Source: an uncultured Clostridium sp. (GTDB lineage Bacteria; Bacillota; Clostridia; TANB77; CAG-508). Taken from it: a DNA stretch of 64,000 bases. Location of the stretch: assembly GCA_947572725.1 (NCBI GenBank), contig CANPDB010000003.1, forward strand, positions 2,296 to 66,295, in the 5' to 3' direction. The translations under genes were made by a program, and so were the position numbers. The notes under the pieces were generated by a model. The model worked only from the letters and a program-made list of their open reading frames with translations, was not told the origin of the DNA and ran no database searches. This document shows positions 35,192 through 35,536 of the stretch, piece by piece. Each line of letters begins with the position of its first letter. Within the stretch, counting starts at the first letter, position 1.

Positions 35192-35220
35192 TTGACTTTT
35201 TTAGATAAAAAATATATAAT
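35192..35220 (+). promoter_or_regulatory. consensus sigma-A promoter for the small hydrophobic peptide
   Basis: TTGACT, 17-nt spacer, TATAAT. Confidence 0.6.
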
Positions 35221-35287
35221 CGAAGTCGAAAATAAGAGAAAGCAGAATGTGGTTGCCACCAACCTATATAGAAAGTGAGGTGGTTTT

Positions 35288-35425
35288 ATGATAGAAAACA
35301 TATTATTAAAACTTCTAGTTTTATCAATATATATAAACATATTTTTAACTATCATCTCTTTTGCATTAATAATAGTTTTGACTATTATATATAAAAAAGA
35401 AAATCACATCTCTGCTACCCATTAG
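35288..35425 (+). CDS. small hydrophobic peptide (45 aa), type I toxin-like
   Basis: RBS GTGAGGTGG. MIENILLKLLVLSIYINIFLTIISFALIIVLTIIYKKENHISATH is one TM helix plus a charged tail. The 5-prime UTR has GGTTG-CCAC-CAACC, with CCACC able to pair to the SD. Confidence 0.5.
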   Translation: MIENILLKLLVLSIYINIFLTIISFALIIVLTIIYKKENHISATH

Positions 35426-35440
35426 AGATATGATTTTTTA
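35393..35440. terminator. bidirectional intrinsic terminator
   Basis: AATCACATCTCT ... AGAGATATGATT stem, with an A-run upstream and a T-run downstream. Confidence 0.7.
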
Positions 35441-35483
35441 TTGTATAAAATAGGTAACCACATTTTGTGGATCTCTTATTTTC
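35395..35483 (-). ncRNA. candidate convergent antisense sRNA overlapping the 3-prime end of the peptide ORF
   Basis: Perfect minus-strand promoter TTGACA (35518-35513), 17-nt spacer, TATAAT (35495-35490). The transcript would run into the shared terminator, overlapping roughly the last 10 codons of the peptide ORF. Confidence 0.45.
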
Positions 35484-35536
35484 AAAATTATTATAATACA
35501 AAAAATATAAAATGTCAATATGAAGGGAAGAAAGAA

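Follow-up and report, generated by a model that had tools for sequence, protein, structure and literature searches.

The window analyzed here is a stretch of 64,000 nucleotides (nt) from an uncultured gut Clostridium sp. (GenBank assembly GCA_947572725.1, contig CANPDB010000003.1). Just upstream of the helicase gene pcrA it contains an unannotated but conserved gene pair, which consists of a gene for a 45-residue membrane peptide and a convergent gene for a predicted antisense RNA of about 90 nt. We consider it probable, with some reserve, that this locus is a type I toxin-antitoxin (TA)-like module of a previously undescribed family and operates as a true TA pair, in which the peptide would be toxic and the small RNA (sRNA) would act as its antitoxin. 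At least 25 related loci, from metagenomes and genomes of uncultured Clostridium, carry the complete module. Both promoters, the open reading frame (ORF), a central hairpin and a sequence complementary to the Shine-Dalgarno (SD) sequence are kept in the homologous loci, and spacers and loops vary. Comparison of these loci revealed conservation of the promoters, coding selection on the ORF, covariation between the anti-SD and SD sequences, selection on the hairpin in the minus-strand sense and selection on a long-range helix in the plus-strand sense. An earlier note on this DNA had described a hydrophobic ORF with a 3'-overlapping convergent antisense RNA, in the manner of txpA/RatA and bsrG/SR4. 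The elements it named (promoters, ORF, anti-SD and SD, hairpin with T-runs on both strands) were all found in place, and this architectural reading is strengthened by the comparative data. The type I interpretation as such receives partial support: architecture, conservation and substitution patterns agree with it, but the proposed leader hairpin, the role of the terminator and a link to a neighboring attachment site had to be revised. The features of the module, with coordinates in the window, are the following.

35192-35220, plus strand: P+, the promoter of the peptide mRNA, with TTGACT (35192-35197), a 17-nt spacer and TATAAT (35215-35220), matching the consensus at 11 of 12 positions.
35228-35257, plus strand: 5' strand of the long-range helix, with box 1 (GAAAATAAGAGA, 35228-35239) and box 2 (GCAGAATGTGGTTGCC, 35242-35257); inverted repeats I11 and I6.
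35256-35260, plus strand: anti-SD sequence CCACC, which pairs with GGTGG of the SD sequence.
35277-35283, plus strand: SD sequence GAGGTGG, 4 nt upstream of the ATG and invariant in the alignments.
35288-35425, plus strand: ORF of the 45-residue hydrophobic peptide MIENILLKLLVLSIYINIFLTIISFALIIVLTIIYKKENHISATH, with its ATG at 35288, one transmembrane (TM) segment and a short polar C-terminal tail.
35403-35434, minus strand: terminator hairpin with arms ATCACATCTCT (35403-35413) and AGAGATATGAT (35424-35434) and a 10-nt loop that includes the stop codon.
35393-35483, minus strand: predicted antisense sRNA of about 90 nt, with its start deduced from P-, overlapping the last 11 codons of the ORF.
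35453-35483, plus strand: 3' element of the mRNA, with GGTAACCACATTTTGTGG (35453-35470) and TCTCTTATTTTC (35472-35483), which supplies the 3' strand of the long-range helix and is complementary to the 5' end of the sRNA.
35490-35518, minus strand: P-, the promoter of the sRNA, with TTGACA (35518-35513), a 17-nt spacer and TATAAT (35495-35490), matching the consensus at all 12 positions.

Both promoters, already noticed in the earlier inspection of the sequence, are of the sigma-A consensus type, and P- is nearer to the consensus than P+, as has been reported for SR4 relative to bsrG. The mRNA is predicted to start at G35228, which gives a leader of about 60 nt. The sRNA is predicted to start at G35483 (the seventh nucleotide after the -10 of P-) and would run, as had been proposed, into the central hairpin. 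At the level of the sequence the sRNA is encoded in cis and antisense to the peptide mRNA, which it overlaps, as in type I systems. The hexamers and the 17-nt spacing of P+ are kept in all four genomic contexts of the module (see below) with a variable spacer sequence, and P- is kept, also with a variable spacer, in all intact loci. The DNA has a G+C content of 25-29%, and TTGACA-N17-TATAAT with at most one mismatch occurs 9 times in the 64 kb (2.5 expected). Perfect copies number only three, one of which is P-. Weak promoter-like sites are at chance level, with 13 found and 12.2 expected.

The ORF, with its single TM helix and polar tail as described previously, is a gene and evolves as a coding sequence, as far as its substitution patterns tell. 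Its frame remains open across 11 distinct alleles while synonymous divergence saturates. The substitutions at codon positions 1, 2 and 3 (for example [15,3,17] and [16,5,19]) spare the second positions, and the ratio of nonsynonymous to synonymous substitution rates (dN/dS) is 0.15-0.45. Replacements are conservative (I/L/V/M, F/Y), and E3, S13 and N17 are largely retained. The best 19-residue hydropathy window covers residues 16-34 with a mean of 2.8, the grand average of hydropathy is 1.36, and the polar tail of about 11 residues has about two K/R and about one D/E. The product is thus a small (fewer than 60 residues) hydrophobic peptide with a predicted TM segment, as are type I toxins.

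The central hairpin has a stem of 11 bp with one C.A mismatch (inverted repeat I1). Its T-runs lie at 35434-35439 on the plus strand and, on the minus strand, where the A-run 35393-35403 of the plus strand encodes them. Our terminator scan passed over this hairpin on account of its 10-nt loop, the loop limit of the scan being 8 nt. A U-tail follows the hairpin on the minus strand in all loci and on the plus strand only in the subgroup to which the window belongs; the loci designated group B have no U-run 3' of the hairpin on the plus strand. When the hairpin is read in the minus sense, the counts of Watson-Crick, G.U and mismatched pairs are 157/15/6, compared to 157/2/19 in the plus sense, and RNAalifold in the sRNA sense detected 4 compensatory pairs and 13 wobble cells. 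The folding energy of the hairpin alone gives a mixed strand signal, with the minus sense favored in 10 of 15 loci; the count per pair is what decides. The hairpin therewith has the appearance of an intrinsic terminator primarily of the sRNA, and of a partial terminator on the plus strand in the subgroup of the window, so that the term bidirectional terminator used before holds for the sRNA and only in part for the mRNA. In the window the sRNA is predicted to consist of a single-stranded 5' end (GAAAAUAAGAGA), hairpin 1 (CCACAAAAUGUGG), a variable A/U-rich linker and the terminator hairpin with its U-run. The consensus over the loci has 12 unpaired purine-rich nt, hairpin 1 (CCACAnnnUGUGG), a variable A/U linker of about 19 nt and a 13-bp terminator with a U-run.

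The first 30 or so nt of the two RNAs are nearly identical (GAAAAUAAGAGA..GCAGAAUGUGGUUGCC in the mRNA and GAAAAUAAGAGAUCCACAAAAUGUGGUUACC in the sRNA). The ORF is therefore flanked by an inverted repeat (I11, I6), so that in a plus-strand RNA reading past the hairpin to about 35483 the 3' element is able to pair with the 5' end of the same molecule. Indeed, all five full-length RNAs that were folded with RNAfold are closed by a helix of about 28 bp, which adds 25-37 kcal/mol of stability over the form that ends at the first hairpin. The helix duplex amounts to -40 kcal/mol in the window and to between -32 and -46 kcal/mol in 14 loci. In each of these 14 loci it is more stable in the plus sense than in the minus sense (mean -38.9 versus -30.9). 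At least 13 differences between the two arms give G.U pairs in the plus-strand RNA, against one in the opposite direction and a few transversions. In alignment A3, 91.5% of the cells pair, compared to 45-52% when the partner is slid by 1-3 columns, and five pairs carry double changes. For box 2 the counts of Watson-Crick, G.U and mismatched pairs are 182/21/7 in the plus sense and 182/1/27 in the minus sense. These opposite biases are, at the level of the sequence, the main evidence both for a minus-strand sRNA that ends at the hairpin and for a functional plus-strand mRNA that spans the whole sRNA gene, and a repeat maintained at the DNA level is hard to uphold as their explanation. The loci behind these counts are phylogenetically non-independent, but the events are spread over several separate lineages.

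Box 2 has a further complement in the 5' arm of the hairpin (-12 to -18.5 kcal/mol, z-scores of -2.4 to -5.4 relative to shuffled sequences), and this pairing is retained in loci L018 and L026 despite their altered hairpin sequences. It could serve as an antiterminator during transcription of the plus-strand RNA. The 3' end of the long form could be set by the U-rich tract UCUCUUAUUUUC (35472-35483) together with the 16-bp box 2 helix that precedes it. Both RNAs begin with the same purine-rich, SD-like box (35228-35239 on the plus strand, 35483-35472 on the minus strand), which changes in concert on both sides between lineages (AAUAAGAGA, AGUAAGGA, AAUAGGAA and GAAUAAGG). In group B loci such as L004 and L010, the sRNA carries a perfect AAGGAG 7 nt before an AUG. 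The shared 5' box may act as a ribosome-binding 5' stabilizer.

Translation initiation of the peptide is predicted to be limited by the fold of its own mRNA, as is typical of type I toxin mRNAs. The pairing of CCACC with the SD sequence, which the earlier note had suggested, is borne out by the alignments: over 14 sequences every cell is paired, and the changes include one U.G pair and one compensatory replacement of C-G by U-A. The compensatory change is found in the divergent locus L018, where AUCAUCUC faces GAGGUGAU. For the gene calls P0043 and P0023, which are extended at the N-terminus, back-translation indicates that the leaders would hold AUCAUCUC facing GAGGUGAU and ACCAUCU facing AGGUGGU. 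Partition-function folding left the SD sequence mostly paired in every state modeled (mean unpaired probability 0.11-0.16). A switch that opens the SD sequence between the closed-helix state and the sRNA-bound state was considered and rejected, as the modeled differences are small and inconsistent (0.16 versus 0.11). The leader hairpin GGTTG-CCAC-CAACC (35251-35264) described previously is present in the window and is unique to it, because its 3' arm (CAACC) falls in a variable stretch of the leader. It is ruled out as a conserved element, the conserved parts of the leader being the anti-SD sequence and the 5' segment. An upstream ORF in the leader (MWLPP..., window 35247-35291) was likewise rejected as a conserved coding element, since its frame, length and stop differ between loci; its AUG (35247, within box 2) is conserved. 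Some gene callers read the TGA as Trp and fuse this upstream ORF to the peptide, which results in the 59-residue 'proteins' P0003, P0005 and P0010.

Based on these data, we propose the following mechanism. P+ would give rise to the mRNA of the single-pass membrane peptide, with its SD sequence held by the upstream CCACC. Part of the transcripts would end at the hairpin, and a functional fraction would continue to about 35483, where the 3' element would pair with the first 30 or so nt in the closing helix of about 28 bp. The stronger convergent promoter P- would produce the sRNA in excess, with its end at the same hairpin. This sRNA would be fully complementary to the 3' untranslated region (UTR) of the mRNA and to the last 11 codons, and its 5' end, a near-copy of the mRNA 5' end, would compete with the leader for the 3' element. 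Binding would displace the mRNA 5' end, open the helix and form a long duplex to be cut by RNase III. The SD sequence would remain masked, so that the peptide would not be made as long as the sRNA is in excess. If the mRNA reads through, the two RNAs are perfectly complementary over about 90 nt; such read-through is implied by the plus-sense selection on the 3' element. We infer both the repression by the sRNA and the nucleases involved, and the translational arm of the model is tentative because the SD switch was not reproduced by modeling.

The architecture appears to be that of the 3'-overlapping type I TA modules of Gram-positive bacteria (txpA/RatA, bsrG/SR4 and the convergent modules of Clostridioides difficile), and the sequence seems to belong to none of these. 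The closest parallel is bsrG/SR4. Structure probing of the bsrG mRNA showed that nt 1-35 pair with nt 232-262 and placed the SD sequence within a short helix. SR4, which is transcribed from the stronger promoter, is complementary to the 3' part of bsrG; its binding frees the 5' nt, and it promotes RNase III-dependent decay (PMC3834814). The present module resembles this system in its convergent genes, in the complementarity of the antisense RNA to the 3' part of the toxin mRNA, in an mRNA (about 294 nt there, about 258 nt predicted here) closed by a long helix between the first 35 or so nt and a 3' segment, in the SD sequence within a short helix, in the small single-TM peptide, in the stronger antitoxin promoter and in the pairing of the antitoxin with the 3' strand of the helix, which frees the 5' end. 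A 3'-complementary antitoxin and mRNA ends paired in a long helix, the architecture of the TxpA/BsrG type as judged by the published bsrG structure, are thus both present. The differences are that neither the peptide nor the RNA shows sequence similarity, that the sRNA has about 90 nt rather than 180 nt and lies wholly inside the mRNA 3' UTR, that the long helix of the mRNA is not followed by a separate terminator stem-loop, that the locus is core-chromosomal and abuts a co-directional housekeeping gene instead of residing in a prophage, and that the extension of the SD pairing on antitoxin binding, shown for bsrG, was not reproduced by our modeling. No type I toxin model in Pfam or NCBIfam matched the peptide up to E = 10, the TxpA/BsrG content of these libraries being unchecked and pairwise comparison not being part of this search. 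The B. subtilis systems txpA/RatA (skin element), bsrE/SR5 and yonT/SR6 share the 3'-overlapping convergent antisense RNA on the mRNA of a hydrophobic peptide, but they show no homology to the present module and sit in prophage-like elements. Decay of their toxin mRNAs is RNase III-dependent (as cited in PMC5416894).

The clostridial precedents CD2517.1/RCd8, CD2907.1/RCd9, CD0956.2/RCd10 and others of C. difficile are convergent, encode toxins of 34-59 residues with an N-terminal TM domain and were originally unannotated (PMC6563280); their toxins have lysine-rich C-termini, and the modules lie in prophages or beside CRISPR arrays and have SigB promoters. The clostridial setting, the convergent overlapping genes, the small TM toxins and the lack of annotation are common to these modules and the one described here. 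The latter differs in having a weakly charged tail and promoters of the sigma-A consensus, and in being located off mobile elements. Its tail has about 2 K/R and it has no phage or plasmid match, a comparison made at the level of these properties and not directly with the C. difficile toxin sequences. Unprocessed toxin mRNAs of the hok and aapA1 type are also held by a 5'-3' fold-back. In hok/Sok of plasmid R1 and aapA1/IsoA1 of Helicobacter pylori, translation of the mRNA requires prior 3' processing and refolding, and chromosomal copies are sometimes inactivated by mutation or deletion (PMC5416894). In these systems the antitoxin pairs with the 5' region or the translation initiation region and activation requires 3' trimming, whereas here it is the 3' strand of the helix itself at which the antisense RNA is directed.

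The peptide and its relatives have no significant match in Pfam, NCBIfam, PHROGs or PDB sequences. The exact peptide is absent from a collection of 15 billion proteins in which the adjoining PcrA is present, and it is therefore unannotated in the source genome. A search with the single sequence returned three relative peptides, and a profile search of a set of 5.8 billion proteins returned 17. A hidden Markov model search of 1.84 billion representatives retrieved 67 clusters at 50% identity (E up to 1e-3), none of them named, with lengths of 34-138 residues (most about 45) and the consensus MLEEILLQLLILSL..N..L.IISF.LI...I.YKENHISA... The search for homologous peptides that the earlier note had called for was thus productive in the protein representatives; within the window it yielded no paralogue, and the locus is single-copy there. 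At the DNA level, an exact 35-nt leader query had no match among genome contigs because it spanned a variable stretch, and a gapped pattern of the conserved leader retrieved 12 more loci, from GTDB genomes titled uncultured Clostridium or Clostridia metagenome-assembled genomes and from metagenomes. Searches of plasmid and phage collections with blastn and tblastn (low-complexity filter on) gave no homologue. No Rfam family reached its gathering score for the RNA; the best E-values in 34900-35800 were 2-10, far below the gathering scores. The only Rfam match in the window is the bacterial small signal recognition particle RNA at 1515-1610 (RF00169, 63.9 bits), with a TTGATA-17-TATAAT promoter upstream of it at 1462-1490.

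Four chromosomal settings of the module were found, each of which is stable across deep divergence. These settings, together with two features that flank the module in the window, are as follows.

Context A: zupT (sometimes with extra genes between), module, pcrA; the window, L001-L003, L006, L009, L016, L022 and L024-L027.
Context B: a gene that from its translations reads as Sua5/TsaC-like, module, RecD2-like helicase gene, RecG-like gene; L004, L007, L008, L010-L013, L015 and L028.
Context C: module, ABC-F-like gene; L018-L021.
Context D: module, GNAT acetyltransferase gene; L029 and L030.
35537-37846, plus strand: pcrA, encoding a UvrD-family helicase, 19 nt beyond the -35 of P- and outside the module; Pfam domains taken from the L002 homologue.
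35159-35177, plus strand: conserved box CGAAAAAAAGTTTGCAAAA, about 15-30 nt upstream of the -35 of P+.

The upstream box is near-invariant as GCGAAAAAATGTTTGAAAAA in all pcrA-context loci, including the deletion variants L005 and L014 as well as L016, L022 and L024-L027, and is not present in the other three contexts. It may represent an UP-element-like A-tract or a site for a regulator. The LexA box consensus is CGAAC-N4-GTTCG; a LexA box is not favored here, as the match is imperfect, with 8 of 10 specified positions in agreement, and its distance from the -35 is too great.

An insertion of about 7.1 kb (27755-34867) divides the zupT gene of the window into an N-terminal part (27230-27754) and a C-terminal part (34868-35145), which overlap by 7 nt of the uninterrupted L002 homologue. 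At the visible right end of the element are a Fic-domain gene and two unknown ORFs, the related contig L001 carries resolvase and serine-recombinase genes, and similar recombinase islands lie within zupT in L001 and L016; zupT looks like a recurrent integration site. About 2.3 kb (24883-27229) between a metallophosphatase-gene homologue and zupT is present in the window and missing from the syntenic contig L002. The module had previously been placed directly beside the right attachment site (attR) of the element. It does lie near the element, at about 325 nt outside of it, and the proximity is incidental, because the module is outside the insertion and occurs in genomes that lack the element and have an intact zupT. 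An association with mobile elements was rejected on these grounds and for want of phage or plasmid homologues, and the locus is native to its intergenic region.

Several observations weigh against a TA pair. Both transcripts and their ends are predictions from the DNA, as is the toxicity of the peptide, for which no homology to a known type I toxin family was detected. The locus has one copy in the window, is chromosomal and is not represented in the phage and plasmid collections, which sets it apart from most type I modules of Gram-positive bacteria. The tail appears less basic than that of many type I toxins and is nearly uncharged in one subgroup, where it ends ...VVIISK. The conserved ...KENHISA tail overlies the 5' arm of the hairpin, and its conservation would be at least partly an RNA constraint because the hairpin sequence persists in the L006/L016 subgroup, where the stop codon precedes it. 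The modeling gives no clear SD-opening switch between states, and the plus-strand transcript may also serve the downstream gene.

The alternative that survives best, and which we hold to be unlikely, is that the peptide is a non-toxic small membrane protein, for instance a subunit with an accessory or regulatory role in a membrane complex, and that a cis-antisense RNA adjusts its synthesis outside any TA relationship. Purifying selection that conserves the polar residues E3, S13 and N17 inside the hydrophobic segment would suit such a protein, as would the stable, vertically inherited core-genome location away from mobile elements, the weakly charged tail and the single copy in the window. However, the very tight control, with a consensus antisense promoter, SD sequestration and a closed helix, is typical of toxic peptides (PMC3834814), and the neighbors differ among the four contexts, none of them being a membrane complex. 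Moreover, independent deletions in L005 (6917-7080) and L014 (1691-1810) have taken the ORF, from about codon 6, together with the sRNA body. The peptide is therefore dispensable, and the joint loss of ORF and sRNA fits a TA pair. One further variant, L013 (1497-1842, on a contig of 2x coverage), lacks the -10 of P+.

Somewhat less likely still is that the module is mainly a regulatory 5' leader of the downstream gene, acting through attenuation, antisense processing or transcriptional interference, with the peptide being secondary. P+ would in that case be the promoter of this gene, and the amount of transcription that arrives there would be set jointly by the hairpin, the long-range helix with its U-rich tract and the convergent sRNA promoter. 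The module and the next gene point in the same direction in each of the four contexts, with the module 20-50 nt upstream of the ribosome-binding site (RBS) of that gene. The downstream genes start 20-50 nt past the -35 of the sRNA promoter (window 35484-35537, L004, L018, L028 and L030), and no convincing promoter of their own was found there; the only candidate is a TATAAT at 35492-35497 on the plus strand, which has no -35 and overlaps the -10 of P-. Furthermore, L005 and L014 retain an intact P+ and leader, now about 40 nt from the pcrA RBS. It is because of the co-directional genes with no evident promoter and of these two deletion variants that the plus-strand transcript may extend its service to the next gene, and the retention of P+ in L005 and L014 fits such a role. 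The group B plus-strand RNA, with no U-run after the hairpin, must read on, and the complementarity between box 2 and the 5' arm of the hairpin resembles an antiterminator-like alternative. Yet the protein-level selection over the whole ORF would be needless for a mere spacer or leader peptide, and in two of the four contexts the functions of the downstream genes are unrelated. A particular link to helicases (pcrA, recD2) was rejected on the latter point, as the ABC-F-like and GNAT contexts do not fit. A leader function is in any case compatible with a type I TA pair and not exclusive of one. A combination of the two is conceivable to about the same small degree, namely that a TA cassette has turned into promoter and leader of the next gene, in which the sRNA, by mimicking the mRNA 5' end, would set both peptide synthesis and read-through. 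P+ would then be the working promoter of pcrA (of recD2, ABC-F or GNAT genes elsewhere), and the long-range helix with the U-rich tract would form a terminator whose upstream arm lies 220 nt away and for which the sRNA competes.

It is very improbable that the inverted repeats are instead a DNA-level feature (terminal repeats of a small mobile element, or twin operators through which one regulator acts on both promoters) with no functional antisense RNA or RNA helix: the promoters and about 30 nt of transcribed sequence do form an imperfect inverted repeat of about 70 bp around the ORF, the module is found at four different chromosomal sites and the 5' box alters concertedly on both sides, but such a feature predicts no strand bias, yet the arm differences are nearly all G.U-compatible on the plus strand with the opposite bias in the hairpin, no target-site duplications or transposase genes are present, and each context is stable.

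The reading as a type I TA module, which we prefer, has several implications. Such modules are elusive because the peptides and RNAs are neither annotated nor conserved between families, and the experimentally validated clostridial examples are confined to C. difficile (PMC6563280). Here, the opposite strand-specific wobble biases allow both RNA partners and their structures to be deduced from the sequence. The 67 unnamed clusters would represent a new family, for which the recovered contigs are those of uncultured Clostridium genomes and metagenomes. The module would also provide a second, independent example of the bsrG/SR4 design, in which a 5'-3' closed toxin mRNA is opened by an antisense RNA that binds at the 3' end. 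Lastly, the fixed position upstream of co-directional housekeeping genes raises the question of whether such modules gate the downstream gene. Were the cassette to have become the leader of that gene, it would be an antisense-RNA-controlled attenuator based on leader mimicry and coupled to a toxic peptide, which would govern read-through into an essential helicase gene.

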